A DNA stretch of 64,000 bases from a virus, in the IMG/VR virus record IMGVR_UViG_3300035698_031273, positions 1 through 64,000 of that record. The stretch is one strand, 5' to 3'. Each line of letters opens with the position of its first letter. Position 1 is the first letter of the stretch. Both the position numbers and the translations under genes were made by a program. The notes beneath the pieces were generated by a model, which worked only from the letters and a program-made list of their open reading frames with translations, did not search any database and was not told the DNA's origin. This document shows positions 950-20,435 of the stretch, piece after piece.

Positions 950-1804
950 ATGAGAAAAATATCACCTCTTTTGTATGGTATAAAGCCAGGAAGTTCAATT
1001 GGACAAGATTTGAAAAGAGATCCAGTTGACAATAGAGATCATTTATTAAAAAGTTTACCTTTATTTAAAGAGGGAATTACTATTCCTTCTGTTATTGATC
1101 ACACTTCAGAAATGAGTCCAGTGAAGGACCAAGGGAACGTTGGGGCTTGTGTGAGCTTCGCAGTAGCAGCAATGAAAGAATGGCAAGAAAAGAAAGAACA
1201 CGAAAAAGAAGTTGAAGAAGGAAAACCAGATCATAGGAAAGGGAAGGTTTATGATTATTCAGAGGCATGGATTTATCGTATGTGCAAGGAAATTGATGAA
1301 TGGCCCGGGGAAGAAGGCACTAGTATCCGTTGTGGAATGAAAGTATTAAATAAAATTGGTGTACCTACGGAAAAAGCATGGACTTATGAAAAAATATTCT
1401 CAGGGGAACCTAAAAAATGGGCTCATTTAATTGCTAGATGGGCTATAGCAGGAGAATATTATAGAATTGAGAATACTCAACAACTAAAAACATCTCTTAT
1501 GAATGGACCAGTTGTAATGGGAATTCCTTGTTTTGTAGAAATTTTTTATGTAGGAGAAAATGGAATTGTTCCTTATCCGGCTGATATAAATAAAATATAT
1601 GGAGGTCATGCCATAACAGCAGTTGGTTTTTCGGATAATACCCAATTAATAAAATTTAAGAATTCATGGAGCGGCTCGTGGGGGGATAATGGTTATGGTT
1701 ATATTTCTTATAAATATTTTGATGATTTAGCTTGGGATACTTGGGGATGTAAAGATATAACGGTTACAAAGGAAATGCTTAAGGGATCTTCGGCAATTTT
1801 ATAA
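950..1804 (+). CDS. Papain-like C1 family cysteine peptidase
   Basis: VKDQGNVGACVSFA (Gln, catalytic Cys), GGHAITAVG (His), KNSWSGSWGDNGYG (Asn). Confidence 0.92.
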   Translation: MRKISPLLYGIKPGSSIGQDLKRDPVDNRDHLLKSLPLFKEGITIPSVIDHTSEMSPVKDQGNVGACVSFAVAAMKEWQEKKEHEKEVEEGKPDHRKGKVYDYSEAWIYRMCKEIDEWPGEEGTSIRCGMKVLNKIGVPTEKAWTYEKIFSGEPKKWAHLIARWAIAGEYYRIENTQQLKTSLMNGPVVMGIPCFVEIFYVGENGIVPYPADINKIYGGHAITAVGFSDNTQLIKFKNSWSGSWGDNGYGYISYKYFDDLAWDTWGCKDITVTKEMLKGSSAIL

Positions 1805-1816
1805 AGAGAGTAAAAA

Positions 1817-2065
1817 ATGACTTGGTATAAAAAATGTAAAAAAGTAAATAAAATACCTGGTGGCAAAGCAGATGGTATGGATTTAAATGGATTTGACCAA
1901 GTAGAGCTTGAGAAGGGAAAAAATGTGGAATTTGAGCATTCCAATGACCCCGAGATAGCTCAAGAAATTTCATCTGATCATTTAGAAGAGCACCCAGAGT
2001 ATTATATTGGTCTAAAACATATGGAAGATTTGCTAACAGAACTAGAGAAAAAAAGAAAAAAATGA
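1817..2065 (+). CDS. WY-leader cassette 1: DUF5661-like small protein
   Basis: Starts MTWYKK; G..VEFEH....IA..I..DHLEE.P.YY pattern. Confidence 0.65.
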   Translation: MTWYKKCKKVNKIPGGKADGMDLNGFDQVELEKGKNVEFEHSNDPEIAQEISSDHLEEHPEYYIGLKHMEDLLTELEKKRKK

Positions 2066-4479
2066 GTTGGTATAACTTTATTAAATTAGCTGATTATGAG
2101 CAATTTCGTTCTAAAGTAGAACAGGAATCTAGGCAAAATCCCTATCCCTTCAAAGATTGGTTCGACGAACAAGGTAGAGTTTATATTCCTTTTTCTTCTC
2201 TTTCTACAGAAGAAAATCAACAGAGTGATACAGATGTAGAGCAACTATTAACTGAAAATGGTTGTCAAATAACTGATTATAGGGGTGGTTATTGTCAATC
2301 TGGAAACAGAACTTATAAAATTGGAAAATTTTTAGAGCAAATAAGAAAAAGACAATTACAAGTGCTTAGGGAACAACACCAAAAAGGGGAAATTTACAAC
2401 TTAGAAAGAGCATTAGAAGAAACAAATAAATATTTTAATGATGTTATAAATACTTTTACAAATTCTTCCCTAAGGGCTCAAAAAGGTTCAGAGGGATTTT
2501 TTATTGTCATTTCCCAAAATCCTCATGATGTTGCTCAGATGTCAACTGACAGAGACTGGACATCTTGTATGGAATTGGGGAGTGGGTCATATCATAAAGA
2601 TATTTATTGTGAAGTTAGAGAAGGTGGTTTAGTTGCTTACCTTATTAATAAAAATGACTTAAATATAGAAAACCCATTGGCCAGAATACACATAAGAAGA
2701 TTTTCAAATAAAGATGGTCAATCTGTGGCTATTCCAGAAGAATCGGTTTACGGAAACGAAGTAACTGGTTTTTCTCAAGGTGTTAAAGAATGGTTAAATA
2801 ATAAACAGGGAAATGTTCAACCAGGAGTATATTCAAGACAGGGAGGGGGATATTCTGATACATTCTCTGATAGGACATTTTTTGGGCCTGAAGATCCAAA
2901 AGAAGTTATGAAATGGCTTAAAGGAGAAGTTGAAGGTTCTGTTTATTCTGAATGGGAAGTAGAGGATGCATTAAATTCTCAATATACAGAATTTGTTGAA
3001 GCTGCTTACATGGATGAAGATGGGAATATTCATACTGATACTGATGAAATCGGTGATTATGAAAAAATATTTAAAAACAAGGAAGAGGCAGAATTATATT
3101 TGGAGAAAATGAAACAAGAAGATAAAAAACACGGTATTTATGATAGAGAAATTTTTGATAATATGAAAAATGAAGAAGAGGGTTTTGAATATGATATCGA
3201 GTGGACCGAAAAAGATGAGGAAGGAAATTGGGCACTTCCAAGATTTAGTATTTCTGAAATAAACCATGATAATAGGAGTGCATTAAAAAAAGAAGCAGTA
3301 AAGATTATTTTAAATGCAGAAAAAGGAGTATATCCTGAAGAAATATTAGAAGAAGTAAAAAAATATATTTTCTTTAAATCTCCTCATCCTACAGTTAATT
3401 TTGATATCAAGAAACAATTTTATATTAAATATCCTAATTTAATGACAGAAGAAGATATTCAATCATTGAGTACTTCTCAAAATATAGAATTCGTAAAAAA
3501 TTTGCCAGAAGAAGAACAAGTACCATATAAAGAAGCGTGGTTAGATAAAATAAACGGTATTATTGATAATCCAGAAAATTTAATTGATGATGAAACTCAA
3601 AGAATGATACGAAAAAGAGATCTGAATACAGACATAGGAGAGAGAGCAGAAATAGATTCACATATATTGACTAGAATAGAACTTCGTGTTAATGATGAAA
3701 TTGCTTCACCTCTTGAGATATTTAAGCCTATTCCAGAACCTTTAATTAGAAAATTAGTAAATTTTGCAAATAATATTAATTCTTTTCTTGGAAAATTTAT
3801 TAATTTAAAGGAAGAAAATTTTTATGATGAAGTTGGTGGATTTGATAAGAGTCTTTATCATAAAAAGAAAGAAGTTGATAATATTAACTTTAAGAAAATT
3901 TCTTTTAATGAAAGAATACACGCTAAAGTAGTATTTTCTTTAAATATGTCTGGTAGCGATACTCCTACTGTACAAAGATATTATGCAAGTTTGCTACCTT
4001 TATGGAAAGAAGATTATACTGGTAGTAATTATAGCAATGTTAATATAAATACTTTAGGGTCTGCTATTGCAAATTTAGGAGAGAATGGAAGACAATTTAT
4101 TCCTTTTATTAAACAAAAAATACAAGAAACACAAGAATACAGAAAATTAAAAGAAGAATCTATAGAAAGTAAGGAAAATTATGTACAAAAACAAGAATTA
4201 CAAAGAATTGATAAGTTAATAGAAAGATATTTATACATATTAGATGCTGTAGAAAGTGGTACAGGCAGATCAAGTAAATATAGATTTTCTAAAAATAGAA
4301 AGTTTTATAAAATGGCAAATAACTGGTATGGCAGAACAAAAGATAAATTAGAAAATATGTTAGGTTTGGGAAAATATGAGCCTAAGCCTAAAAAGAAGAA
4401 GAAAAAGGAAGAAAAGGGAGATTGTGATTGTGCTCATTCTTTGGACATGCATTGTGATGGTGGAGATGACGGATGGTGA
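2062..4479 (+). CDS. WY-leader cassette 2: large hypothetical protein with MSTDRDWTSCM domain
   Basis: Starts MSWYNFIKLA; ATGA overlap with upstream stop; in-frame internal MANNWYG at 4312. Confidence 0.6.
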   Translation: MSWYNFIKLADYEQFRSKVEQESRQNPYPFKDWFDEQGRVYIPFSSLSTEENQQSDTDVEQLLTENGCQITDYRGGYCQSGNRTYKIGKFLEQIRKRQLQVLREQHQKGEIYNLERALEETNKYFNDVINTFTNSSLRAQKGSEGFFIVISQNPHDVAQMSTDRDWTSCMELGSGSYHKDIYCEVREGGLVAYLINKNDLNIENPLARIHIRRFSNKDGQSVAIPEESVYGNEVTGFSQGVKEWLNNKQGNVQPGVYSRQGGGYSDTFSDRTFFGPEDPKEVMKWLKGEVEGSVYSEWEVEDALNSQYTEFVEAAYMDEDGNIHTDTDEIGDYEKIFKNKEEAELYLEKMKQEDKKHGIYDREIFDNMKNEEEGFEYDIEWTEKDEEGNWALPRFSISEINHDNRSALKKEAVKIILNAEKGVYPEEILEEVKKYIFFKSPHPTVNFDIKKQFYIKYPNLMTEEDIQSLSTSQNIEFVKNLPEEEQVPYKEAWLDKINGIIDNPENLIDDETQRMIRKRDLNTDIGERAEIDSHILTRIELRVNDEIASPLEIFKPIPEPLIRKLVNFANNINSFLGKFINLKEENFYDEVGGFDKSLYHKKKEVDNINFKKISFNERIHAKVVFSLNMSGSDTPTVQRYYASLLPLWKEDYTGSNYSNVNINTLGSAIANLGENGRQFIPFIKQKIQETQEYRKLKEESIESKENYVQKQELQRIDKLIERYLYILDAVESGTGRSSKYRFSKNRKFYKMANNWYGRTKDKLENMLGLGKYEPKPKKKKKKEEKGDCDCAHSLDMHCDGGDDGW

Positions 4480-4928
4480 ATTGGTATAAGCAAACACAGC
4501 AACAATATTTATGGGAAGATGATACGGAACTTCCTTTTGCTAATGTTAAGTCTACTAAAGAATACTGGGACAAGAAATATCCTAAAGCTGGTAACAATGT
4601 TAGTGGATTAAATGTTGTAGGAAGTGTTGATAATACAGGCTCTATTAGTGCTGCAATGGAAAATTATTATATATATTATGATATTCGTGAAATTCCAATG
4701 TCTGATTTTGGAGAAGGTGGTTCTTACTCAGTTGATAATAATGAGAGAAATAGAAAATTAGCAGAAGAAATAAAAATGTCAGGTGAAATTTCTCCTCTAA
4801 TTGTAGTCATAGACGAGGAAGGTACTTATATTTTAGAAGGAGCACATAGATTTGATGCTTTATATTTATTGGGAGTACAATCTTTTCCTGCTTTATTGGT
4901 TTTAGATCAGGATGAAAGTGAAAAATGA
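4473..4928 (+). CDS. WY-leader cassette 3: ParB/Sulfiredoxin-like domain protein
   Basis: Starts MVNWYKQTQ; ISPLIVVIDEEGTYILEGAHRFDAL matches the ParB-N GxHR motif. Confidence 0.75.
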   Translation: MVNWYKQTQQQYLWEDDTELPFANVKSTKEYWDKKYPKAGNNVSGLNVVGSVDNTGSISAAMENYYIYYDIREIPMSDFGEGGSYSVDNNERNRKLAEEIKMSGEISPLIVVIDEEGTYILEGAHRFDALYLLGVQSFPALLVLDQDESEK

Positions 4929-6685
4929 ACTGGTATAAAATAGCACAACAAGGTTTACTTTTTAATCCTTATGACAAATATAGGGATGAGGAAGAGGGAG
5001 CAGAAAAAATATCTCCATCTTATGTAGACCCCAATACAGGAGAAAAATTTTACGAATGTACAAATTGCGGAAAATCTTTTCCTGAAGAAGAATTAGAGTG
5101 GGATGTTTCAAGAAGCGATAAAAATGAATATTCCTTTTCTCTCATAGAGAAACCTTTGAGAGAATTTTTTACAGAAGTATGGAATTATCTACAACCACTT
5201 TATATTAAATACCAAAAAGAAAAAGGCAATGAAAATTCTTCTTGTGAATCTTGGACATCTCCTACTGAAGAATTACCTAATATTGTTAAAAAACATGAAT
5301 TTCAATTTGATCAATTATTATCATATTCTAAGTATTCTTATGATTATAGTTTGTTAACTTTAATTAATATATTAAAAGAAACATCAATTATAAATGGTTG
5401 TGAACTAGAAGAGATTAATAAAATCTTTTCTAATATGGATCAATTAATAAATACAATATTTACAAATCCTACTAATATTTTTATTCCTATTCTTGAACCT
5501 TATTGTAAAGAATGTATAGAAGATTTTCCCAATTGTAACCTTTGTTGGAAAAAGATATTGCCAGAAGAAAGGAAGTGGCAAGATGTAGATAAAGGTTTTA
5601 TTTGTGCAAAATGTATAGAAAATGGAGAAGGTAGTGTATGTATTGAATGTGGTCAGGCAGATGATACAGATAATATGGTATATACTAATGACGGTACTCT
5701 TTGTAAAAATTGTTCTTCTTCACCATATCAAAATCAGATGTATTCAGAATGGGCTGAAGAAGCTATTTCTGATTTAGATATTCCCGTAGGAAAATACGAA
5801 CCTGTTGTTAAAAAAACCTTAACAAGTCTTAGACAATTTCTTTTAACATATTATAAAAGATATGGAGATGTTTCTTTAGAGCAAAATGAACTATCAAAAT
5901 TAATTCATTTTGCTGAAAAAGCTCGTTTATCCGATCAATCTATGGAATATTTAAAATCTTCTGTTGGAGGTCATATTTCTATTGGTTTTTTAATTGACCA
6001 TATAGATAATAATTTAGGAGCACAAGAATATATGGAAGATTTGTATCCTGGTATAAAAAAATATGAGGATATACCTTTTGATATTAATGTGGTTCCTAAT
6101 GATGTAAAAAAAGTCATGGGTTTTACTATTACAATTACTCCTTCTGACAAATTCTTTTCTTGGGCAAAAAATATACATCCTAATATTGAAGAAGTATGGA
6201 GTAGTATGAGATACACTCCTCATCATGAAGGAACCTTAGCCTATGCACGTTGTAGTTTTAATGGAGATATTTTAGTTGTAAATAATTTACAAAGAGATGC
6301 TGATTTTGATAATTTTCTTAATCAATCTATGTCTGATAATTCTAAAAATGTTGAAGTTGCTAAATGGATGGATAAGGTAACTAAAAATTGGGATATATTT
6401 TTATTACATATTGTAAAATCAATTTGTATAGCAAAAAGTATTGATGGCTATTTAACAACATTTGATCAACAATCTGAAAAGTGGGAAAGTTTACCAATTC
6501 ATAAAAGTCGTCGTTCTTATGAAGATGTTCCTCGAAAAATGGATTTTCCTTTAGAGGTACCTAGTCCAACTGCACTTGTAGAAGATGACATTAAAGGAGA
6601 TATGTATCGGGTTGCTCATGAAAACTGGTATAGAAGAGCACAAAGACATAAATTCGGAAATAATTTTGACTACAAGGTATTTTAA
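4925..6685 (+). CDS. WY-leader cassette 4: multi-Zn-ribbon protein
   Basis: Starts MNWYKIAQQ; six CxxC pairs (CTNC, CKEC, CNLC, CAKC, CIEC, CKNC); C-terminal HH..LAYAR...LVVNNLQRD region; internal NWYRRAQ at 6623. Confidence 0.65.
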   Translation: MNWYKIAQQGLLFNPYDKYRDEEEGAEKISPSYVDPNTGEKFYECTNCGKSFPEEELEWDVSRSDKNEYSFSLIEKPLREFFTEVWNYLQPLYIKYQKEKGNENSSCESWTSPTEELPNIVKKHEFQFDQLLSYSKYSYDYSLLTLINILKETSIINGCELEEINKIFSNMDQLINTIFTNPTNIFIPILEPYCKECIEDFPNCNLCWKKILPEERKWQDVDKGFICAKCIENGEGSVCIECGQADDTDNMVYTNDGTLCKNCSSSPYQNQMYSEWAEEAISDLDIPVGKYEPVVKKTLTSLRQFLLTYYKRYGDVSLEQNELSKLIHFAEKARLSDQSMEYLKSSVGGHISIGFLIDHIDNNLGAQEYMEDLYPGIKKYEDIPFDINVVPNDVKKVMGFTITITPSDKFFSWAKNIHPNIEEVWSSMRYTPHHEGTLAYARCSFNGDILVVNNLQRDADFDNFLNQSMSDNSKNVEVAKWMDKVTKNWDIFLLHIVKSICIAKSIDGYLTTFDQQSEKWESLPIHKSRRSYEDVPRKMDFPLEVPSPTALVEDDIKGDMYRVAHENWYRRAQRHKFGNNFDYKVF

Positions 6686-7176
6686 TGAGTTGGTATAAAA
6701 TAGCACAAAATTATATTCCTGAATGGGATTTTCCAGAGGCAGAGGATTCTCATGATTATAATCCATCATGGGATTATGAAATAGATGTTCTTCCAGATGA
6801 AAAAATTGTAGCAATTGCTGAAAAAGTAATGAATGAAATAAATACAAAAATGTTACCTGAAATTGGTATGGGGAAAGCTAAAATATCTTATATTAAAGAT
6901 GAAGAGAATGCATTGGCTAGATATATTTCTGGAACAGCCCCTTATCCTGTTTTTGTTATTGATATTAATAATATAAAAAAAGCAGTAGAGGAATGTATTA
7001 AAGATAATTTTTGTGATTTAGAACATGAGCTTTCAATTGGGATTAGTACAACACTTTTTCATGAGTTGGGACATGCGATTCAAGATTGGATGAATTTAGA
7101 GTCTAATGAGGATGAAGCAGAAGAATTTGCCAGACATTATAGTGATTTTGGAGAGATCTCAAATTTTTGGGAATAA
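6685..7176 (+). CDS. WY-leader cassette 5: zincin-like metallopeptidase
   Basis: Starts MSWYKIAQ; TLFHELGHA (HExxH) plus downstream E..AEEFA. Confidence 0.8.
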   Translation: MSWYKIAQNYIPEWDFPEAEDSHDYNPSWDYEIDVLPDEKIVAIAEKVMNEINTKMLPEIGMGKAKISYIKDEENALARYISGTAPYPVFVIDINNIKKAVEECIKDNFCDLEHELSIGISTTLFHELGHAIQDWMNLESNEDEAEEFARHYSDFGEISNFWE

Positions 7177-7178
7177 AA

Positions 7179-7661
7179 ATGAGTTGGTATAAAAAAATTA
7201 AAATATCAGCAACCAAACAAGAATTAGAGTCTATAGGAGTAGAAATTGTAAATGGAGATGCTATTCTTTATAGAGGGACAGATATTAAAGATCTTACTAT
7301 CAATAATTTAAGATACGGAGATTTTTTATCTTCTGTTCCATCTGGCACTGATTTAACAGGAAATGCTGGAGCAGATTCATATGGTAAATACATAGAGAAA
7401 TATATAGTCCCTATTGATCATATTGAGATTTCTAATGGAGAACTTCAATACAAAGGTCCTTCAAAAAGTTTATCAGGTGGAAGTAAATACCCAGAAGAAA
7501 TATATAGAGCTTATAATGATTATTATGGAAGTAATTATACTTCTCAGCAAATAGATCAAGAAGATTATAAAATAGTAAAGATGGTAGCATCAATGGCTCT
7601 TGGTGGTGGTCGTGACGAATTTGATATTTTATTAAGAAATCATAAAAATGAATTGGTATAA
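7179..7661 (+). CDS. WY-leader cassette 6: ADP-ribosyltransferase-like protein
   Basis: Start reassigned to ATG 7179 (MSWYKKIKISA); LYRG...LRYGDFLSS...A.SYG pattern of small phage ART-fold domains; ends NELV. Confidence 0.5.
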   Translation: MSWYKKIKISATKQELESIGVEIVNGDAILYRGTDIKDLTINNLRYGDFLSSVPSGTDLTGNAGADSYGKYIEKYIVPIDHIEISNGELQYKGPSKSLSGGSKYPEEIYRAYNDYYGSNYTSQQIDQEDYKIVKMVASMALGGGRDEFDILLRNHKNELV

Positions 7662-8517
7662 AATTAGTCAAATAGAAAATTGGTCTTCTCAAGATATTTT
7701 AAGGCATATTGAAAAACTTTATAAACAATGGGATCCTTTATACTCTAAAGTTGAATCTAACCAAGTAATGCTGCCAGAAGAGATAGAAAGAGAAGAAGAT
7801 TTAAGAAATCAACAAAGGTTATATGGACGTTTATATAATGAAGAAATAGAAAAAGAAAAAGAACAAACATCTGCTAAAATATTAGAAGGAAAACCCCATG
7901 AGGTTCCACAAGAGAATTTTTTAAATTATCATAAAACAGGTGATATTGTAGACTCGGCTTACAATGATTATAAAACAATAGAAGGTTTATCGTGGCTGGG
8001 AAAACCTTCTGATTATCCTATTTTATTAATGCAAAAAAAATATGGTGATGAAATTATTGAATTTAGAAAGAAAAAAGAAAAATTAAAATATGTAAGAACT
8101 AATAATGAAGAGATAGTTAGAGATGAGAAAGGTTTAGCAACATATCTTTCTGATGAGGAAATTAAAGAACGGGGATATCCTTTATATTCTACCGATATTA
8201 CAGTTTTTAATGAAAAAGGACAACCAATAGGTTCAGCTTCTGACGAATTTGGAACAGATGGAATTTGGGTAATAGAACAATATCAAGGAAAAGGTATAGG
8301 AACTGATTTACTTCATGAATTTAGAAAACAATTTTCTCATAAAAGAAAAATGGGACAAATGACTACTTCTGGTAGGAATACCACAAGAGCATATCATAGA
8401 AGATTAGTACAAGAAGCCATTAAAAATAATCAATTTGTTCCAAAAAATGTTCTAGAGACATATAAAGGAGAAGAGTGGGCAAATAAGGTTTTAGAGGATA
8501 AAAATGAATTGGTATAA
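7648..8517 (+). CDS. WY-leader cassette 7: GNAT acetyltransferase domain protein
   Basis: Starts MNWYKISQ; IWVIEQYQGKGIGTDLL is the acetyl-CoA-binding motif A (QGKGIG); ends NELV. Confidence 0.8.
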   Translation: MNWYKISQIENWSSQDILRHIEKLYKQWDPLYSKVESNQVMLPEEIEREEDLRNQQRLYGRLYNEEIEKEKEQTSAKILEGKPHEVPQENFLNYHKTGDIVDSAYNDYKTIEGLSWLGKPSDYPILLMQKKYGDEIIEFRKKKEKLKYVRTNNEEIVRDEKGLATYLSDEEIKERGYPLYSTDITVFNEKGQPIGSASDEFGTDGIWVIEQYQGKGIGTDLLHEFRKQFSHKRKMGQMTTSGRNTTRAYHRRLVQEAIKNNQFVPKNVLETYKGEEWANKVLEDKNELV

Positions 8518-9316
8518 AAAATCATATAATACTCAAGTTGGTATGTTAAACAGATATCTGAGAGAAGGATTTAATATTTATGATTATATTCCTTACTTGA
8601 TGGATTTTTTAGAAGAAAAGCATCCGGAAGTAATTGATAATTTATACAAAGCACAAGAAATGAATAAAAATAACTTATTCAACAAAAAAGATTTATATTA
8701 TGATGATGAAGATTATATAATGGAAAAATGGGTAGATTATGCCACTCCAGAACAAATAAAAGAATTTAAAGAATGGATAGAGAATAAAAAATTAGATTCT
8801 TCTAGACGGGATGCTCCTCCTTATGAGGCAATGGATTATAATAAATTTATTAAACCAACATGGTTAGTACATTTTACTGATAGTCCAGATGATATATCTG
8901 AAGAGGGTTTTGCTAAAGGATGGGAAGAAATGGAAGGCTTATCATATACTACTTTCTATAGAAATCCTAAGTCTCCAGGTTATAATTTTTCTTTTCATGC
9001 AGATAATTATAGAGATATTAGAGCAGCAGCTCGAGGTAAAAAATATGGTGAACATGCGGTTTTATTTTGGGGTAGTGGTGTAGAAGCCACTCATTATGGA
9101 GATGAAGAAGATCAAGTGATTGTCTGGGGTCCATCTATAAATACTAATTTAATAATTCCTATTATGAGACAAAGTGATACTGGTAATTGGGCTATAATGA
9201 ATAATAGATATAAATATGATGAACAACCAATGTATGAAAGTGAAAATATTACAGATGTTATTGATTGGGGAATAAATAATAGTGATTTAGTTAGAAGGGT
9301 AATGCATAAATTTTGA
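8504..9316 (+). CDS. WY-leader cassette 8: ADP-ribosyltransferase-like protein
   Basis: Starts MNWYKKSY; WLVHFTD...I.EEGF...GYNFSF...KYG...DEEDQV pattern consistent with an ART fold. Confidence 0.45.
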   Translation: MNWYKKSYNTQVGMLNRYLREGFNIYDYIPYLMDFLEEKHPEVIDNLYKAQEMNKNNLFNKKDLYYDDEDYIMEKWVDYATPEQIKEFKEWIENKKLDSSRRDAPPYEAMDYNKFIKPTWLVHFTDSPDDISEEGFAKGWEEMEGLSYTTFYRNPKSPGYNFSFHADNYRDIRAAARGKKYGEHAVLFWGSGVEATHYGDEEDQVIVWGPSINTNLIIPIMRQSDTGNWAIMNNRYKYDEQPMYESENITDVIDWGINNSDLVRRVMHKF

Positions 9317-9786
9317 ATTGGTATAAATTATCTAAAAAATTAGAACCTTGGGAAATGACAAGAAAAGAATATGATTCTATGCCATATCCTCCTTTAAAAC
9401 CCAATAAGATATTTTATGTTAATGTTTACGGAAGAAATGTTGAATTTATTCAAAATCCAACAAGTTCAGATATAAGACAAATGAGTAAAGAAGTTATATC
9501 TGACTATCCTATGTATCCTTTGGGTACCCCTAAATTAAGATCAACACAAGATGAGAATGGTAATAAATATTATTGGAAAGCTTCTGAATCTGTGCATGCT
9601 CATATAGAGCCTTTAATAAGTAAAATAATTAATACTGAATTAAATCAAAATGCAGCAAGACCTTATTATTATACAGTTATATATGATGCTTTAAAAGAAA
9701 AAAAACCAGTTCCCAACAATATATTTAACGAGTTTGCACAACAATATCCAGATGCAGCTAGGAAATTTAATTATGAATTGGTATAA
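9313..9786 (+). CDS. WY-leader cassette 9: hypothetical protein
   Basis: TTG start (TTGAATTGGTATAAA) overlapping upstream TGA; EPWEMT..EY and ALKEKKPVP motifs; ends YELV. Confidence 0.65.
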   Translation: MNWYKLSKKLEPWEMTRKEYDSMPYPPLKPNKIFYVNVYGRNVEFIQNPTSSDIRQMSKEVISDYPMYPLGTPKLRSTQDENGNKYYWKASESVHAHIEPLISKIINTELNQNAARPYYYTVIYDALKEKKPVPNNIFNEFAQQYPDAARKFNYELV

Positions 9787-10540
9787 AACAGCACAACAAA
9801 TATTAAATGTTAATCCATATCTTTCTAAAGAAGAAAAATCTTCTATAAGAGAGATAAATAAAAATATAAAAGAACAACAATTTGCTTTAGAACTTTATCA
9901 AAATAGCATTTTGGAAAAACAAAATAAAGCAAAACAAGAAAACAGACCTTTAAATGAAGATGAAGAAACATATATAAAAGGAGCAGAATTTTTTATAGAT
10001 AAAATAAATACTAGTATTCAAAGGTTGCAAGAAAATGTAGAATTTATAAAAGACAAGGTAAAAGAAGAACTTTCTCAGGAAGTTAGTGGGGGTAGGAAAA
10101 CAACAAGTTTAATAAATGAAGCTGTTAAAGAATTTAAAATAACTACAGACATAAATGAAGCTGGATATATTATGCCAAATGGAAAAATGTTAGATTTTTC
10201 CGGAAAAAGAGAAAAAGCATTAGGAGGAACTAGATCACTTGATCATAGATCAATTGCTAGAATAAAAGGAATAGAAGGATCTTATACTGATGGGATGAAT
10301 GAATTTATAAATAAAACAGGAGCAATTAGAGTAAATTCTAGTGTAGGATTAGGTATAGATGTAGCTAAACCAATCACTCCTCAACAAAAAGCAACAATAT
10401 TAAGAAATATTAGAGGAAAAGAATATTTTTTAATAGAGGTTAATGATAATGGAGGAATTGCTATCTGGCAAAAAGAAATACAAATGCCTTTGGTATTTAG
10501 TGCTGCTAAATTAATTGAGGAAGCAAATACTCAATTTTAA
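9773..10540 (+). CDS. WY-leader cassette 10: coiled coil plus GYIMPNGKMLDFSG...DHR domain
   Basis: Start reassigned to ATG 9773 (MNWYKTAQQ); motif of a kind I associate with phage polyvalent proteins. Confidence 0.6.
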   Translation: MNWYKTAQQILNVNPYLSKEEKSSIREINKNIKEQQFALELYQNSILEKQNKAKQENRPLNEDEETYIKGAEFFIDKINTSIQRLQENVEFIKDKVKEELSQEVSGGRKTTSLINEAVKEFKITTDINEAGYIMPNGKMLDFSGKREKALGGTRSLDHRSIARIKGIEGSYTDGMNEFINKTGAIRVNSSVGLGIDVAKPITPQQKATILRNIRGKEYFLIEVNDNGGIAIWQKEIQMPLVFSAAKLIEEANTQF

Positions 10541-10613
10541 ATAATATAGTTTTTAAAGAATAAAATCAATGGATACTAAAATGTATCAGCACCTTAACAA
10601 AGGAGAGTAAAAA

Positions 10614-10739
10614 ATGGGTTTAATAAGCGGATTAATAATTGGATTTGTTATTGGAGTTGTTTTTGCCCCAATAGCACTTAGATTGTTTAAAGTTCTTTGG
10701 AGTAAAATATCAAAGAATGTAGATAGTTTAGAAAAATGA
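10614..10739 (+). CDS. Small single-TM membrane protein (41 aa, not in ORF track)
   Basis: AAGGAGAG RBS; MGLISGLIIGFVIGVVFAPIALRLFKVLWSKISKNVDSLEK; its stop overlaps the next ATG (ATGA). Confidence 0.7.
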   Translation: MGLISGLIIGFVIGVVFAPIALRLFKVLWSKISKNVDSLEK

Positions 10740-11008
10740 ATTGGTATAAAAGACATATATATGCAGGTCGTCCTAAAAGATTACCGTCTGTTACTCTTCG
10801 AGATTTAATGAAAATATTAAATAAAGAAGAATGTCAGTTTGTGAGAAAAACGCCTAGAGGACATAATATTTGGAGATGTCCTAATAATAATAATCATAAT
10901 TTCCCTATCCCAAATCATCGAGGAGATATAACGGATGTTATAACACCTATTATTCAAAAAGGACTGGGAATGACTGTAGATGAGTTTGTAAATAAATATT
11001 ACAGGTAA
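10736..11008 (+). CDS. hicA: WY-leader cassette 11: HicA-like mRNA interferase
   Basis: Starts MNWYKRH; LPSVTLRDLMKIL...FVRKTPRGHNIWR...IPNHRGDI...IIQKGLGMTVDEF is the HicA pattern; no hicB nearby. Confidence 0.75.
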   Translation: MNWYKRHIYAGRPKRLPSVTLRDLMKILNKEECQFVRKTPRGHNIWRCPNNNNHNFPIPNHRGDITDVITPIIQKGLGMTVDEFVNKYYR

Positions 11009-11084
11009 AACTAATATATCTGGTGTCAACTCATAATGAATATTTTTGAATTTATAAATAAATTTAATAGATAAGGAGGTAAAT

Positions 11085-11318
11085 ATGAAAATTGGTTTTT
11101 TTGAGAATGAACCAGGAGAAAAAAGTATAACTAGATTAGTTTTTGCTTTTTTAATTTTGAATGCTACTCTCATGTCTTGGTTTTTATTAATATCAAATCC
11201 TGTACTATGGCAAGCGGCTGCTACTATGTTTGGTACTGTATCTGGTGTTGCTACCGGGCTTAAGTTGATTCAGAAATCACAAGAGGTTAACGAAAAAAAC
11301 GGCAAAAAAGTAACATGA
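11085..11318 (+). CDS. Small two-TM membrane protein (possibly holin-like)
   Basis: AAGGAGG RBS; two hydrophobic helices after KSITRL; basic C-terminal tail. Confidence 0.55.
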   Translation: MKIGFFENEPGEKSITRLVFAFLILNATLMSWFLLISNPVLWQAAATMFGTVSGVATGLKLIQKSQEVNEKNGKKVT

Positions 11319-12280
11319 CATGGTATGGAAATTTAAAACTCGCCTCCGTAGAATATATGTATCATGGGACAGGTATGCAAAATCTTTCTTCTATTCTTTC
11401 AGAAGGATTAGTGCCGGGTAGATCTCTTATTTACGATGAGCCATTAGACTATTCTTCTATTAGAAGTTATGGAGGAATTTATCTTACTAATAACATAATG
11501 ACAGCTTATTCTTCTGGCACAAAAAATATTGAGAAAACGAAATCAGAAGAAAACAAAAGAGTTATTATAGTTGTTAAAATAGAAACAAAAACACCTCATG
11601 TAATTATAGATGAAGATTTATTTATGTCTCCAGGTTATTCTATTCAGAAAAAATTACCAGTAAATCTAAATGTATCAAATAGTTATGATTATTTAGCTTA
11701 TTTTGTGACCACAGAAATGAATTCTAAAATTGATGAACTTGTTGATAGTTACATAGAGAGTTTAGAATTTGTAAATAAAATACAGGATAATAGAATTTTA
11801 ACTAATTTGAGACCTCTTATTGCTGAATTGATACAGGCATATTTATGGAGACAATTGGCATATCAAATGGACAATTATTTCTTAGATGCCCATGACTATC
11901 AAAAAGAAGAATTTTTTACTAAATATCCACAGTTAAGAAATATTAATGTAGAGGAATGGGAAGTAAAATATAGATCAATAGCAGATAATATTATGAGAAA
12001 AGTGCATAGATTAAAAGAAATTATAGAAGAAAGATATTCTTATAATTTGAGATCACTAGAACCAATTTCATTTAGAGGAAAAAATAAAATTGTTTTAATA
12101 TCTGTTTTGAAACAAAATGATATTGAAAATGAGTATTATTTTGAATCTGATATTTTATATATGGGTGATGAGCAGGCTGCTCAAAAAATGATAGATGACT
12201 TGACTGGTCGTTTAAGTACTTATGCAAAAATAACCTATAGAGATAATGTGTTATATGAAAACGAAAAAGAATTGGTATAA
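11315..12280 (+). CDS. WY-leader cassette 12: ADP-ribosyltransferase-like protein
   Basis: Starts MTWYGNLKLAS; MYHGT...ILSEGL...GIYLTNN...AYS; ends KELV. Confidence 0.65.
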   Translation: MTWYGNLKLASVEYMYHGTGMQNLSSILSEGLVPGRSLIYDEPLDYSSIRSYGGIYLTNNIMTAYSSGTKNIEKTKSEENKRVIIVVKIETKTPHVIIDEDLFMSPGYSIQKKLPVNLNVSNSYDYLAYFVTTEMNSKIDELVDSYIESLEFVNKIQDNRILTNLRPLIAELIQAYLWRQLAYQMDNYFLDAHDYQKEEFFTKYPQLRNINVEEWEVKYRSIADNIMRKVHRLKEIIEERYSYNLRSLEPISFRGKNKIVLISVLKQNDIENEYYFESDILYMGDEQAAQKMIDDLTGRLSTYAKITYRDNVLYENEKELV

Positions 12281-12638
12281 ATTAGCACAATCTGAAAATC
12301 AATATTTATATCATGGAACCTCTGAAGGTGCTTTTAGAAAAATACGAGAAGAAGGATTAGTTACTAATGGTGGTTTTATATATTTATCTGAAGATATTCA
12401 ATATGCTAAAACATATTCTGAAAGAAAAGGAAATAATATTGCTGGATCAAGAATTTTAAGAATTTTAAAAACCCCAGATATGTTACGAGATGAAAGGATA
12501 AGTATTCCAGGAGATTATATTACAAATAGAAATATTTCTCCTCAAGAAATAGAAGTTTTAGTAGAAAATAAATGGATTCCTATACAAGAATATAGTAACC
12601 CAGATATTAATATAATGCCATATTTTAATAAAAGTTAG
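12255..12638 (+). CDS. WY-leader cassette 13: ADP-ribosyltransferase-like protein
   Basis: MKTKKNWYKLAQ; LYHGTS...IREEGL...IYLSED..YA..Y...ISPQEIEV. Confidence 0.7.
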   Translation: MKTKKNWYKLAQSENQYLYHGTSEGAFRKIREEGLVTNGGFIYLSEDIQYAKTYSERKGNNIAGSRILRILKTPDMLRDERISIPGDYITNRNISPQEIEVLVENKWIPIQEYSNPDINIMPYFNKS

Positions 12639-12645
12639 ACAAATT

Positions 12646-12957
12646 ATGAATTGGTATAAATTATCTTCACAAATACAATTGTTCAGAGGAGAGATGGAGT
12701 CTGGACAAGGAAATAATTATTATTCTCCAGATAAGGAGTTTGCAAGACAATTCACTCAAAGTGGTCAAGATAAAGAAATTAAAACAATAATTATGGATAA
12801 ATCTGATATTTATAGAAAAAATCCTTTACCGAGATCTTACGGTTTTGACGATAAAGAACTTGATAATGCAATAGCAGAGGCCAAGGAGAATGGATTTAAA
12901 GCACTTTGGATTGATGAGGGAGAAGGACAGCCCAATTCAGTTTTTCTAATAAAATGA
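12646..12957 (+). CDS. WY-leader cassette 14: small ADP-ribosyltransferase-like protein
   Basis: Starts MNWYKLSSQ; LFRGE...YYSPDKEFARQF...GFKAL. Confidence 0.55.
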   Translation: MNWYKLSSQIQLFRGEMESGQGNNYYSPDKEFARQFTQSGQDKEIKTIIMDKSDIYRKNPLPRSYGFDDKELDNAIAEAKENGFKALWIDEGEGQPNSVFLIK

Positions 12958-13112
12958 ACTGGTATAAAATAGCACAACAAGGATATCTCTGGGATAATGA
13001 CCCATCTCTTCCCCATGCCAATACTTCATGGGAACCTTCTGGTGATATATTTGAGGATATTAAAGAATGCTCTACAATGGGGGAACTTAATAGGGTTTTT
13101 AGCAGTTATTGA
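12954..13112 (+). pseudogene. WY-leader cassette 15, 5' fragment (52 aa) truncated at the tnpB element
   Basis: MNWYKIAQQGYLWDNDPSLPHANTSWEPSGDIFEDIKECSTMGELNRVFSSY*; stop falls at the IS left boundary. Confidence 0.7.
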
Positions 13113-14413
13113 TAAACTTACAAAATTATACAAAAACTTCAATAAATTTATAAAAATAATTTAAATTTTTATTAAAGGAGTTTTAGGATATACCCAGTAA
13201 TTATAATATATGATTAAGACAGAAAGACATTTTACCACAGGAAACCAAGAAATTATAAATCTTTGTTCTTTAAGTAAAGATTTATATAATCGGTGTCTTT
13301 ATCTAATTAGGCAAGAATATTTTAAACATAAGAGACTACCTGATATAAATATTCTTGTAGATTCAACTAGATGTTTAGATTGTTTTAAAAATCTTCATAA
13401 TACGAAGACTGCCAAACAAACAATCAGAAAAGTATTGTCTGACTGGTCTAATTTTAGGAAAGCATTAAATGCTTTTTACAAAAATCCTAATAAATTTTTA
13501 TCAAAACCCAGACCTCCAAAATACAAAAAGAAATTATCTCAAGTTATATTTTATAGTGAAACTATTAGCAGAAAGGGCTTAAAACATGACATAATTCAAC
13601 CTACAAACAATTGTTTTTCAATTAAATCCAGTATTAAAAAATTTAGACAGGTAGTCATTACTCCAAAAACCTTTGGTTTTGTCATAGATGTACAGTATAA
13701 AGTAGAAGAAAAGAAAAATCCTAGTAGAAAAGGAATTTGTTTTATAGATTTAGGTGTTAATAATTTGGCTTCTATAACTTCAGATCAACTAACTCCCATA
13801 TTGATCAATGGTAGAATAGTTAAAAGTATTAACCAATATTATAACAAATATCCAACTAAAAAGAACTCAAGAAAAAGGTATTTTAGACTAGAAAATTATT
13901 TTCATCACGTAAGTAAATATATTATTGACTTATGTAAAAACAATAATATAGGAAGAATAATTATAGGAAAGAATGATTATTGGAAACAAAAGATAAAAAT
14001 GAAAAAGAAGAACAAACAGAATTTTCAGTATATTCCTTTTTATAAATTGATACAAAAAATTCAGTATAAAGCTAAATTAGAGGGAATTATAGTAGAGTTT
14101 ACTGAAGAAAGTTATACAAGTAAAAGTAGTTTTCTAGACAGAGATCCTTTAGATGGAAGTACTATTTCTGGTAAAAGAGTTCAAAGAGGATTATATAAAA
14201 GTAAAGATGGAAAAATTTTAAATGCAGATGTAAATGGAAGCTTAAACATAGGGAGAAAAGTAATCGGAGAGAAGATTTATGATCTTTTATCTGATAGGAG
14301 CGTTACCGCAACGCCAGTGGTCATTAACCCATTGAAATTATCATCTTCAAAGTTATTTTGTCAAAAGATGGTCGGTTAATGATACAAACTTGTAAGTTTT
14401 TGTAAATTTATAA
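13113..14413 (+). mobile_element. Non-autonomous IS200/IS605/IS607-superfamily element carrying tnpB only (ends approximate)
   Basis: tnpB without tnpA; imperfect inverted end repeats (TTACAAAATTATACAAAAACTTCAA vs reverse complement TTATAAATTTACAAAAACTTACAA); interrupts a coding frame. Confidence 0.7.
13210..14379 (+). CDS. tnpB: RNA-guided endonuclease TnpB
   Basis: SKDLYN N-terminus, P.PPKYKK, RuvC-I IDLGVNN, IIIGKN, EESYTSK, GKRVQRGLY, RuvC-III NADVNGSLNI. Confidence 0.93.
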   Translation: MIKTERHFTTGNQEIINLCSLSKDLYNRCLYLIRQEYFKHKRLPDINILVDSTRCLDCFKNLHNTKTAKQTIRKVLSDWSNFRKALNAFYKNPNKFLSKPRPPKYKKKLSQVIFYSETISRKGLKHDIIQPTNNCFSIKSSIKKFRQVVITPKTFGFVIDVQYKVEEKKNPSRKGICFIDLGVNNLASITSDQLTPILINGRIVKSINQYYNKYPTKKNSRKRYFRLENYFHHVSKYIIDLCKNNNIGRIIIGKNDYWKQKIKMKKKNKQNFQYIPFYKLIQKIQYKAKLEGIIVEFTEESYTSKSSFLDRDPLDGSTISGKRVQRGLYKSKDGKILNADVNGSLNIGRKVIGEKIYDLLSDRSVTATPVVINPLKLSSSKLFCQKMVG

Positions 14414-14702
14414 GAACGGTATAGAAAATCGTTATACTCCTGCTGGAATTTTTGTTAGTGAAAATATTGATTTAGCATCTACATATGGGGATATAATAGG
14501 AATAAATGTTGGAGAAATGAAGAATGATAATTATATGCCTGTAGTTTCAATAGAGGAGCCAGTTGAAGAATCTCAAATGAGAGAGGCAATAGCACATAAA
14601 TTGGGGGTGGATAATTTCATAAGTGAATATGAGGCAGGAATTGAAATAGATACGGTTATTTTTTATGGTAAAATTCCACCGAAATATTTAATATTTCAAT
14701 AA
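14406..14702 (+). pseudogene. 3' fragment of the ART-like cassette interrupted by tnpB
   Basis: The frame of ORF 14517 is open back to 14406: KNGIENRYTPAGIFVSENIDLASTYG...GKIPPKYL, a typical ART-like C-terminal half. Confidence 0.6.
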
Positions 14703-14791: not shown

Positions 14792-15673
14792 ATGAGAAAA
14801 CTAATGGCAAGTTTACTAGTATTGTGTTTACTATTTTTTGGAGGAGCGGCTTTTGCTGAAGAAGAGGGGTCTACTGTAGTCCCTGTTGCTCCTAGTGTTA
14901 CAGAGTTAGAACCGTTGATAGATGGTAATTTATTTGGAACAGATTTGAGTGAAGCAACTTGGAAAGAGGCAGATGTAACTATTGAAACTAGTTATGCAAG
15001 TAAATATAAATGGTATGGTAGAAGTCTTTTTGGTTCAACTCCGGTTTGGTCAGCTCGTTCAGTAATTGGTTTACCCAAAGGATTAACTCCATTTGGTGGT
15101 GGTCTTTATGCTGATATTACTGGTTATTTTCCTGCTGGATCAGGTGCTGAGAAAGAGACAGAGATGGATTATTCTTTGTTTTGGCATGCAACTGCAAATG
15201 AGGGCAAGAGAACTCAATTGGAAATTTTTGTAGATTATACCTATTATGATCTTATAAAATCTAATAGGCATTGTGACGGGCAAGAGATTGGAACTACTGT
15301 TTTCATGCCTAATGTAATTGACATTGCAGATGGTGTTATATTGATTGGTCCTAAATATAGAAGTGCTATTTTATGGGATCAAAATCGGGAAGAGATGGAA
15401 CGGTATAATGGGAACGTTCAGGTAGGTGGTCTTGTTTGTCAAATAAATGCAATAGATGGACTTCCTTTAATTGCTAATGCTGATGTTACTTATCTCGATG
15501 TTGGTGATGTAGAGGCTGGTTTTAGTCATAGCACATTTGGCTTAGAGACAAAAATTCAGATTACAAAAGATAGTTATATTAGTCCTTTTGTAAATTATCA
15601 GATGAGAATAGATGATACATTAGAAGATGAAGATGGATTTTGGGGTGGTGTAACCATGGCATATACTTTCTAA
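14792..15673 (+). CDS. Outer-membrane beta-barrel protein (TorF-like putative porin)
   Basis: AAGGAGAG RBS; Sec signal peptide ending AFA; YASKYKWYG; alternating strands; C-terminal MAYTF BAM-type signal. Confidence 0.7.
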   Translation: MRKLMASLLVLCLLFFGGAAFAEEEGSTVVPVAPSVTELEPLIDGNLFGTDLSEATWKEADVTIETSYASKYKWYGRSLFGSTPVWSARSVIGLPKGLTPFGGGLYADITGYFPAGSGAEKETEMDYSLFWHATANEGKRTQLEIFVDYTYYDLIKSNRHCDGQEIGTTVFMPNVIDIADGVILIGPKYRSAILWDQNREEMERYNGNVQVGGLVCQINAIDGLPLIANADVTYLDVGDVEAGFSHSTFGLETKIQITKDSYISPFVNYQMRIDDTLEDEDGFWGGVTMAYTF

Positions 15674-15702
15674 GGTATATAAAAACGTAATATTATCCTC
15701 CC

Positions 15703-15742
15703 AAACCCCTGTAAATGATTTATCGTTTACGGGGGTTTTTTT
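15703..15742 (+). terminator. Rho-independent terminator
   Basis: AAACCCCTGTAAATGAT-TT-ATCGTTTACGGGGGTTT stem followed by a T tract. Confidence 0.85.
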
Positions 15743-15827
15743 AATATTGGAGGATTTAACTACTAATTAACGAACTAAATAAGTGTATAAATATATTAAT
15801 TAAAATAAAGAGAAAAAGGAGAAAAAG

Positions 15828-16034
15828 ATGGCTAAAATTCGTATTCCGTTAGTTTCTGGAGGAAGAGGTAGAGGAATGGGTCCATGTGGTGGAGGACAGG
15901 GGCCAGGTGGAGGAAGAGGACAGGGGACAGGTGGAGGAAGAGGTTTAAATAGAAATACTGGTCCTTGTCAAAATGGTGGGCCTGGACGTGGTTTAGGACA
16001 AGGTCAGGGCAAAGGACTAGGGAGAGTTAAATAA
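15828..16034 (+). CDS. Gly/Arg-rich small basic protein (DUF5320-like)
   Basis: AAAGGAGA RBS; GRGRGMGPCGGG and G-R-G repeats. Confidence 0.6.
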   Translation: MAKIRIPLVSGGRGRGMGPCGGGQGPGGGRGQGTGGGRGLNRNTGPCQNGGPGRGLGQGQGKGLGRVK

Positions 16035-19376: not shown

Positions 19377-20435
19377 ATGAGTTGGTATAAAAAATCACAA
19401 TTTACAGAGGAAAATACGAGTGGAGTACAAGTTCCTACGATAACTGTCCAACCATATGAGCCTATTGTACAACAAGTAGTAGAAGAAATTAAGGAACAAA
19501 ATCCTTCTTTTTTCGTAGGGATAAATCAAATAGTTGTTGATCCTGGTTATTCCCAATTTGGATCTGTATCTAGTTCTAATCCTGCGGATATAAATATTAA
19601 TTTTAATAAAATAAAAGATGATTTTAGATATCAAATGGGTGTATCTTTCAATCCTTATAATGCTTATCATTTACAATTATTTAAAGATAGTATCAGGCGT
19701 ATCATAGTTCATGAAAAAGCACATGTATCGGACGCTCAACAGGCACAAGAAGGTTCTGAAATTCCTTTATCAGGAGAAGAATTATTTCCTGGAGGAGAAA
19801 GCGTGGCACAACAAGCAGAACAAAAATATTTCAACATGAGTAAGAAAATAGAAAAAAAATCTGTATCAAAGAAAAAATCCACACTAAAGAAAAAAATTAC
19901 ATTGAAGAAAAAACCCACACTTGATTATAAAAATCAAGATGTTCAAAATTTAAGTTTTGGAGACATACAGAGGTATACATTTGACTCATATAATATTAAA
20001 ATAACTTTAAGTAAAACTAAAAAACGTTATGCTGTAGCTTTAGTTGTTACCCATGCATATCTTGGGACTTTCGTTCTGAATATTTTTTGGTCATTTGGTT
20101 TGAACGAACAAGATAAAGCTAACAGTTTATTTAAGAAAGCTACAAAGATAATAAAAGAAGTAGTAAAGTATTTTATTGACAATGAGATGGTAACTTCTAC
20201 ATTCGTATCTTTTTTAAATAATAGATTAACTCCACTAAAGACACGAGAAATGATAAAAACTAATGTGCCTTTTATAAATTATTCTTATGATTTGGAGGTG
20301 GAACAGGATTGGAGAAGTAGTATTTATGGTAATAGGTATCAACAGGTTGTTGAACCAGAAGAAAGTTTTTCACAAGCAAAGGAAAAAAGTCCATATGATC
20401 CCAAGAATTATAATAAAGGAAGGTTTGATATATAA
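19377..20435 (+). CDS. Dispersed WY-leader protein: zincin-like domain, Lys-rich linker and second domain
   Basis: Starts MSWYKKSQ; IIVHEKAH (HExxH) and downstream GESVA. Confidence 0.65.
   Translation: MSWYKKSQFTEENTSGVQVPTITVQPYEPIVQQVVEEIKEQNPSFFVGINQIVVDPGYSQFGSVSSSNPADININFNKIKDDFRYQMGVSFNPYNAYHLQLFKDSIRRIIVHEKAHVSDAQQAQEGSEIPLSGEELFPGGESVAQQAEQKYFNMSKKIEKKSVSKKKSTLKKKITLKKKPTLDYKNQDVQNLSFGDIQRYTFDSYNIKITLSKTKKRYAVALVVTHAYLGTFVLNIFWSFGLNEQDKANSLFKKATKIIKEVVKYFIDNEMVTSTFVSFLNNRLTPLKTREMIKTNVPFINYSYDLEVEQDWRSSIYGNRYQQVVEPEESFSQAKEKSPYDPKNYNKGRFDI

Follow-up and report, generated by a model that had tools for sequence, protein, structure and literature searches.

The 64,000-nucleotide window analysed in this work (positions 1 to 64,000 of the IMG/VR virus record IMGVR_UViG_3300035698_031273) carries, between positions 1817 and 13112, an array of 15 open reading frames (ORFs) that begin with one short peptide containing a Trp-Tyr pair (the WY leader; M-[NST]-W-Y-[KNG] in the window) and then diverge into unrelated bodies. 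Comparative sequence evidence suggests a role of this leader in capsid targeting: leader type follows head type among huge phages, T4-like leaders occur on the same cargo in other lineages, and the head protease of the phages carrying the WY leader has a look-alike N-terminus. On balance, we favour the reading that one clade of huge phages, relatives of Bacillus phage G, uses the WY leader as a prohead-targeting tag, which would be analogous to that of T4 but set apart from the T4 family because it lacks a Glu cleavage site and because the gp21/gp23 machinery was not found with it.

The original prediction had listed the 15 array ORFs, and all of them were recovered with the same coordinates and N-termini; a sixteenth ORF with the motif was found outside the array, at 19377. 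When each plus-strand ORF was taken to begin at its first start codon, 12 of 111 had Trp-Tyr at residues 3 and 4, in contrast with 0.12 expected (binomial P = 1.4e-20), and no further N-terminal motif was detected when the whole 107,069-bp contig was scanned. ORF 9313 starts at a TTG codon; in ORF 4473 the ATG start yields MVNWYK and a GTG at 4476 yields the canonical MNWYK; in ORF 12255 the motif stands at residues 6–9 (MKTKKNWYK). Internal copies of the leader were present near the C-terminus of two large leader proteins, MANNWYGR in ORF 2062 and ENWYRRAQ in ORF 4925. Residues 754–805 of ORF 2062 displayed 47% identity to a free-standing 68-residue protein of locus L009 that begins with MNWYKQSK (L and G numbers denote the loci and records compared; L060 belongs to G028, and L106 to phage G), which points to a fusion in frame or, alternatively, to translation from an internal start. 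In the AlphaFold2 model of ORF 8504, residues 1–21 had a predicted local distance difference test score of about 42 and were not packed against the domain, as would be expected of a free peptide.

When the 109 canonical leaders of the window and related loci were pooled, the consensus was M-N-W-Y-K-[KQIR]-[AIS]-[QK], and conservation ended sharply past residue 8. Codon positions 1 and 2 were fixed and position 3 was free; Asn was encoded by AAC (52) or AAT (44), Lys by AAA (78) or AAG (18), Ala by GCA, GCT, GCG or GCC, and Gln by CAA or CAG. This synonymous variation indicated that selection acts on the peptide, and it ruled out the possibility, raised in the original prediction, that the motif is conserved only as DNA irrespective of reading frame. 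Synonymous usage was not random within the leaders. Tyr was TAT rather than the alternative codon in a ratio of 101:8 vs. 79% TAT in gene bodies (P = 9e-5), Ser2 was AGY in nine of nine cases (P = 3e-5), and Asn2 was AAC in 54% of cases as compared to 21% in gene bodies. Both other frames were closed within 15 nucleotides in 95 of the 109 leaders, by the stops in ATGA and TATAA, and the upstream gene terminated within the leader in 43 (30 ATGA overlaps and 13 with an ...ELV stop); the regions upstream were A-rich, with no clear Shine-Dalgarno sequence. The leader is therefore also a compact stop/start junction, a property of the DNA that is probably a second layer beside the peptide tag and may ease both cassette exchange and translational coupling.

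These same features would be expected if the leader were chiefly a gene-junction or expression cassette acting at the DNA or mRNA level, with a start region that is A-rich and poor in structure; it would allow translational coupling in a host making little or no use of Shine-Dalgarno pairing and provide short homology for swaps, the peptide being a by-product. The possible in-frame fusion at the internal leader of ORF 2062 and the identity of the leader DNA of ORFs 4925 and 12954 across 27 nucleotides point in the same direction. As the main explanation we consider this unlikely, since fixed first and second codon positions with free third positions are the signature of peptide selection, and neither stops nor an A-rich start require Trp-Tyr or Ala-Gln. 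Besides, the highly expressed capsid and decoration genes of the phages with WY leaders do not carry the leader, and other lineages place differing peptides, mostly ending in a protease-type site, on the same cargo. A cassette function can coexist with prohead targeting as a second layer.

The array also contains paralogues, as ORF 12954 displayed 58% identity to ORF 4473 over 24 residues and several ADP-ribosyltransferase (ART)-like genes are present. Thus, the shared start could in principle be functionless, having spread by duplication of leader-bearing genes or recombination into them and then simply persisted; the tandem arrays and the 27-nucleotide identity between two leaders would fit this. 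It is, however, a very improbable account, because the peptide is kept, with synonymous turnover, across phages whose capsid proteins are only about 70% identical and across unrelated cargos, because conservation stops so sharply past residue 8, and because distinct but analogous leaders occur in other lineages.

An exact scan of IMG/VR for M-N-W-Y-K-x-A-Q returned 36 stretches with at least 94 leader ORFs, which had unrelated bodies and were often arrayed (about 20 in 8 kb in L020). Nine of ten IMG/VR records scanned whole presented 1–11 exact MNWYK starts, and the reversed-pattern control gave none. The expectation of the original prediction that a scan of this genome and its relatives would give N-terminal matches on unrelated cargo was thus confirmed beyond the window. 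In complete genomes (461–548 kb), the tagged genes were distributed in several scattered mini-arrays. By comparison, 596 Gb of bacterial and archaeal genomes gave just 11 matches vs. about 17 in a rough chance estimate assuming uniform base composition, and several of the 11 were evidently phage contigs binned into metagenome-assembled genomes. The WY leader was not found in phage G, SCTP-2, Atu_ph07, Tunturi_5, XacN1 or the 635-kb LR745206, and a search of 8.4 million papers for the literal motif strings returned no relevant match.

A capsid gene was located by clustering of the loci beside the arrays and BLAST. Its product, a protein of about 290 residues, was 70–93% identical among WY contigs and was present in 17 of 29 of them and in five of five near-complete ones; it displayed 54.7% identity to the major head protein gp27 of phage G. 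The G-type capsid protein, portal and head protease were all found in these phages, and, as judged from such sequences, the WY phages form one clade related to Bacillus phage G. Searches with the HK97-type families PF05065, PF04586 and PF17289 gave no match in the window contig; in five WY records PF04586 gave no match and PF05065 one weak sub-threshold match (G005). The window contig (107,069 bp, GC content 31%, nearly all genes on one strand) was estimated by CheckV to be 22% complete, so that the whole phage genome would measure roughly 480 kb; head genes were not found in this 22% complete fragment. TnpB, PhoH and several other genes of the contig have counterparts in phage G, with 25–51% identity. 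The window is probably a fragment of a phage-G-like huge phage, a relationship that had been missed when the array was first described.

The proposal that the leader is a portable tag was supported by the finding that one cargo family bears different leaders in different phage lineages. Homologues of ORF 8504 in other huge phages begin with MKIREI, MKYFYKGHIYE or MKFMYKGRIFE, or carry PNFSEFLNE, and in those loci unrelated neighbouring ORFs share a leader of their own. Thus, MK-[ILV]-x-Y-[KR]-G-x-x-Y-E, which we take to resemble the start of cyanobacterial DUF4278 proteins, was found on 8 unrelated ORFs within 20 kb in L061, L062 and L063, M-[RK]-[IL]-x-E-I on 8 ORFs in 20 kb in L060, from the 543-kb T4-like phage G028, and M-x-x-K-S-F-Q-E-Y in L064. 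Counted genome-wide, M-[RK]-[IL]-x-E-I starts numbered 20 in G028 (0 in the reversed control) vs. 3 in the similar-sized G029. Among the best 120 of the 439 homologues of ORF 8504, 10 had MNWYKK-type starts (MNWYKK, MTWYKK and close variants) and six MWYGIYKEA, and most of the others followed M-R-x-x-I-x-[IL]-[IV]-E. The boundary between leader and conserved body could be placed in 63 homologues. Their leaders had a median length of 13 residues, and 58 of these leaders ended in [ILVMF]-x-E directly before the body. The prohead proteases of T4, phiKZ, 201phi2-1 and SPN3US cleave after Glu in the P1 position (PMC5694885).

Leader type was accompanied by a difference in head genes. A gp21-type protease (PF03420) or gp23-type capsid protein (PF07068) was present in none of six WY records, in contrast with three of five non-WY huge-phage records (G028, G029, and G030) that had both; the other two were fragments of 10 and 36% completeness. 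The lineages with Glu-ending leaders that were checked (G028 and G030, with G029 in the same search) therefore combined a gp21-type protease with a gp23-type capsid protein. Moreover, two proteins adjoining the gp21-like protease of G030 begin with MRSKLPTFNEFI-x-E, a start similar to the leaders on the cargo of the same phage lineage as well as to the T4 sequence MKTYQEFIAE. In WY phages the head module is ordered as portal (gp14-like), a protein of about 140 residues, a protein of 1834–1998 residues, decoration protein and capsid protein. The first ~200 residues of the long protein correspond to a head-maturation protease (phrog_18299, E 1e-9) that is 35–48% identical to gp19 of phage G; this domain was identified with PHROGs, whereas Pfam and PDB sequence searches gave nothing for the polyprotein. 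The N-termini of the WY polyproteins (MAIYKTAT, MAMYKRAT, MGFTKRAS, MSFMKKAK, and MIYKFAL; M1, K5, and A7 invariant) resemble the leader. A regular expression for this pattern matched nine of 940 ORFs once WY leaders were excluded, namely the five proteases and four leader variants, with no unrelated ORF. Leader genes lie directly after the capsid gene or a few kb from it in G003, G005, G004, G007, L004 and L040. The remaining part of the polyprotein, at least 1600 residues, matched no family (L107, L109, L111, and L113).

If the WY leader targets the prohead, the free N-terminal peptide, with its hydrophobic-Tyr-Lys-x-Ala core, would bind a component of the prohead interior. Candidates are the portal, the capsid protein and the polyprotein with protease and scaffold parts, the last of which itself carries the look-alike N-terminus. 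Tagged proteins would then be enclosed in the procapsid and later delivered with the DNA. Prohead binding, packaging, injection, and cleavage or retention of the tag are steps that we infer from the comparative data.

Phage G itself presents a sister leader, MKRL-x-[KR]-K-[AS], at the head of about 13 ORFs. The tagged proteins include the PARP-like gp53, the NUDIX protein gp334, the ferritin-like gp346, gp284, which is annotated as a ParB-like nuclease, and gp251, which has no Pfam match and shares the LYHGT motif with ART-like ORFs of the window. Two of these genes are close to the head module, gp13 directly upstream of the portal and gp17 between portal and protease. Intermediate leaders, such as MKIYKIAQ and MKIMKAAQ, were found in contigs of the WY clade, and the common core of the WY and MKRL leaders is hydrophobic-K-x-A/S. 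The protein gp346 (L106:11161-11880) has an N-terminal extension of about 100 residues that begins with the MKRL leader. A particle proteomics study of phage G reports gp346, in an experiment in which 104 of 668 ORFs were detected (PMC12484599).

Several observations weigh against prohead targeting by these leaders. The WY leader has no conserved Glu and no evident protease site, and in complete genomes many tagged genes stand at a great distance from the head genes. The type of leader and the type of head both track phylogeny, so that any lineage-specific partner would give the same correlation, and the likeness of the protease N-terminus to the leader appears in one orthologous family. The non-random synonymous usage described above places part of the conservation at the nucleotide level. 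A single detected protein, gp346, means little against a background of 104 of 668 ORFs. Finally, ordinary enzymes are tagged as well. The absence of the motif from structural and housekeeping genes, as originally stated, held in the window but not among its relatives, in which glucose-6-phosphate dehydrogenase (G6PD), P-loop kinases and a poly(A) polymerase/CCA-type nucleotidyltransferase have the leader, along with a GHKL ATPase and a helix-turn-helix protein; in phage G, the NUDIX protein gp334 is likewise an ordinary enzyme.

A short free tag on functionally mixed proteins, ordinary enzymes included, would also be expected if the leader addressed a partner other than the capsid, either as a degron or stability signal for a host AAA+ protease or as a peptide docking on a chaperone or hub of the phage, and so set the lifetime or location of the tagged proteins. 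ClpX N-motif 1 consists of polar, hydrophobic, hydrophobic, basic and hydrophobic residues, and N-W-Y-K(-I) fits it; clipping of the leader would moreover expose Trp as an N-degron, and phage G encodes ClpP and ClpX. However, only about one leader in three has a hydrophobic residue 6, and ClpP was not found in the near-complete WY phages G001, G002, G004 and G007, by which a phage-encoded ClpP was discarded as the partner. In three contigs, a C1 peptidase gene that itself has no leader is immediately adjacent to leader arrays (window 950-1804, L009:2110-4188, and L007:1498-2343), the L009 copy being broken by an intein with an HNH endonuclease; among six other huge phages, a C1 peptidase search gave a weak sub-threshold match in XacN1 only. 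Papain-type sites have an aromatic P2 and a basic P1 residue, and W-Y-K/R would suit such an enzyme. The peptidase was rejected as an obligate leader protease, as it was present in six of 28 WY contigs and three of the six near-complete records, was distant from the arrays in G004 and was absent from the leader-bearing G002. A non-capsid partner would furthermore leave both the Glu-ending T4-like leaders and the head-protease look-alike unexplained, and we regard it as an improbable alternative to prohead targeting.

As judged from domain matches, most of the cargo of the WY leaders corresponds to the domain repertoire of phage polyvalent proteins, present here as separate genes. The domain names first given to the bodies were sustained to different degrees: DUF5661 scored over the Pfam cut-off, GNAT just below it, and ParB_N and HicA below it, whilst the ART-like and zincin-like labels corresponded to sub-threshold matches in the same direction, the HExxH motif of ORF 6685 being visible in the sequence. 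Most window ORFs contain one recognisable domain each, ORF 2062 adding a fused small module. The description of the array as a polyvalent protein in pieces found direct support in L059, in which an ORF of at least 4824 residues (L059:6095-20566; contig GC content 64%) runs off the locus. With scores for ART-PolyVal (three times), GNAT, PARP and Tpt1, this ORF is a textbook example of a polyvalent protein. Separate domains of it are homologous to two ORFs of the window: ORF 8504 matches residues 1303–1491, and residues 16–101 of ORF 11315 match residues 4709–4792, where the Pfam PARP family scores. For polyvalent proteins, transport inside the capsid together with the DNA has been predicted, the ADP-ribosyltransferase Alt of T4 being the experimental precedent (PMC5512222); the term "N-terminal motif" was not found in the text of that paper. 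On the whole, portability and the notion of a protein in pieces stood, whereas that of a pure effector library did not. The latter was too narrow because ordinary enzymes such as G6PD are tagged in relatives. The scattering of the tagged genes over several mini-arrays in complete relatives had also been missed originally. A full-length G6PD is encoded at L002:11652-12971, with the leader MNWYKWAQ directly ahead of its GASGDLA motif; a G6PD match thought to start at residue 1 in Synechococcus phage Sf-CH11 proved to be internal and to have no leader.

All leader ORFs of the window are on the plus strand. The first (1817..2065; 82 residues, MTWYKK) has a DUF5661 body (Pfam E 3e-9), and its homologues in L009 and L027 carry MNWYK leaders. 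It is followed by an ORF of 805 residues (2062..4479; MSWYNFIKLA), of which residues 30–266 are homologous to an ORF of L060, from the T4-like huge phage, that starts with MKIREI; a related-locus search with ORF 2062 returned no relatives. The internal second leader of this ORF, MANNWYGR, with a Cys-rich tail, spans 4312..4479. The third (4473..4928; 151 residues, M(V)NWYKQ) has a ParB-N-like body (ParB_N E 0.002, below the cut-off) and a homologue in L042 that begins with MNWYKQIK. The fourth (4925..6685; 586 residues, MNWYKIAQ) is Cys-rich, has the second leader ENWYRRAQ near its C-terminus and matched no Pfam family. In the fifth (6685..7176; 163 residues, MSWYKIAQ), the putative zincin-like body contains the HExxH motif as HELGH and gave weak metallopeptidase matches (E 0.03–0.05). 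The sixth (7179..7661; 160 residues, MSWYKKIKISA) is 60% identical to an L011 protein with the leader MKIYKISS. The seventh (7648..8517; 289 residues, MNWYKISQ) has a GNAT body, for which Acetyltransf_7 gave E 9e-6 and 26.4 bits, just below the cut-off of 27; its homologues in L018 and L029 have MNWYK leaders.

The eighth leader ORF (8504..9316; 270 residues, MNWYKKS) belongs to a family with the invariant motifs TWLVHF, GYNFAF and HYGDEEDQ and possibly with an ART fold. A profile search gave 439 homologues, none of them named, and the top Foldseek matches of its model were all ADP-ribosyltransferases, but with non-significant scores (E > 0.1); a tblastn search of 50,697 phage records with ORFs 8504 and 7648 returned nothing useful. 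No family was found for the ninth (9313..9786; 157 residues, MNWYKLS from the TTG start) or the fourteenth (12646..12957; 103 residues, MNWYKLSSQ), and the tenth (9773..10540; 255 residues, MNWYKTAQ) has a homologue in L040 beginning with MNWYKKAQ. The HicA-like body of the eleventh (10736..11008; 90 residues, MNWYKRH) matched HicA_toxin below the cut-off (E 8e-4), and in G004 a homologue with the start MNWYKKYLYAG follows the capsid gene at a distance of about 5 kb. The twelfth (11315..12280; 321 residues, MTWYGNLKLAS) has a PARP-like ADP-ribosyltransferase body with a PARP match of its own at E 0.045, and the thirteenth (12255..12638; 127 residues, MKTKKNWYKLAQ) an ART-like body with LYHGT, for which ART-PolyVal, PARP and Tpt1 matches were all sub-threshold (E 0.025–0.07). 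The fifteenth (12954..13112; 52 residues, MNWYKIAQ) is an N-terminal fragment of an ORF 4473 paralogue adjoining an IS605-type TnpB gene (13210-14379; 36% identical to a phage G ORF), which suggests that the TnpB element may have truncated a leader gene. The sixteenth (19377..20435; 352 residues, MSWYKKSQ), outside the array, has no Pfam or PHROG family.

Around the array, the contig encodes a ThyX-like protein in addition to the papain-family C1 peptidase (950-1804), as well as PhoH, a DNA methyltransferase and a minor tail protein; very large ORFs near the array are probably structural. In the stretch 14792-16034, where GC content and GC skew were locally raised, an ORF of 293 residues has a signal peptide and a C-terminal ...AYTF and resembles an outer-membrane beta-barrel; the ORF that follows it, of 68 residues, is Gly/Arg-rich with GGRGxG repeats.

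The closest known parallel is T4, in which the internal proteins IPI-III and Alt (MKTYQEFIAE) likewise have a short N-terminal peptide as the sole common element of otherwise unrelated host-directed proteins, which evolve fast and include an ADP-ribosyltransferase. Internal proteins of T-even phages are diverse defence proteins with the targeting sequence alone in common (PMC3012670). As in T4, the WY leader appears portable to any cargo, and T4-like huge phages bear similar leaders on homologues of the window cargo. Unlike the T4 sequence, to which it is unrelated, the WY leader lacks a conserved cleavage site at Glu, and its phages use a capsid protein and protease of the phage G type; packaging of the WY-tagged proteins is a prediction. 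The tagged genes are also more numerous (16 in 107 kb vs. about six in T4) and stand in tandem arrays. With polyvalent proteins (Iyer et al. 2017), the cargo shares a repertoire of ART-PolyVal/PARP-like, GNAT, ParB-like, zincin-like and Tpt1-like domains, the GNAT, ParB_N, ART and zincin matches being sub-threshold; in contrast to the 2–15 conflict-related domains per polypeptide in those proteins, the domains of the WY phages are separate genes with their own leaders. No MuF anchor domain was found in the Pfam scans run on the leader ORFs. In phiKZ, 201phi2-1 and SPN3US, N-terminal regions of ejection proteins are similarly thought to target the prohead, and the paralogues gp53 and gp54 have identical first residues, but those propeptides comprise 80–160 residues and are cut at A/S-x-E, whereas the WY leader has about 8 residues and no such site. 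Encapsulins offer a resemblance only: a short terminal peptide, usually C-terminal, loads diverse enzymes, ferritin-like ones included, into an HK97-fold shell, and the MKRL-tagged gp346 of phage G is likewise ferritin-like, but encapsulin shells belong to cells and not to virions, and their peptides have no sequence relationship to the leaders.

Taking these comparisons further, we put forward, as a tentative generalisation that we hold with rather less confidence than the role of the WY leader itself, that huge phages with several unrelated types of head may each possess a short N-terminal code of their own, by which a large set of rapidly exchanged single-domain enzymes, in effect polyvalent proteins in pieces, is loaded into the capsid. 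The WY leader would then represent a new capsid-targeting system, working with a non-T4 protease polyprotein that has the same N-terminus. Such codes may comprise hydrophobic-K-x-A in phage-G-like phages, as WY or MKRL, and R-x-x-I-x-L-V-E, MRIxEI and YKGxxYE in T4-like ones, the YKGxxYE leader having been seen so far only on small fragments, where the head type is not established.

To our knowledge, phage G is the only megaphage in culture, and its possession of the sister leader opens the hypothesis to direct testing. If the leader is a true packaging signal, the start of a gene would predict from sequence alone which proteins a megaphage injects, and hundreds of tagged, mostly unnamed families, for instance the HYGDEEDQ family, would become prime candidates for anti-defence or host-takeover functions. 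The 8-residue tag could also be tried for the loading of foreign proteins into very large capsids. Capsid targeting by short leaders would then be a recurrent solution rather than a peculiarity of T4, with codes that differ according to the head machinery, and polyvalent proteins and tagged arrays would represent alternative routes by which one arsenal is packaged.

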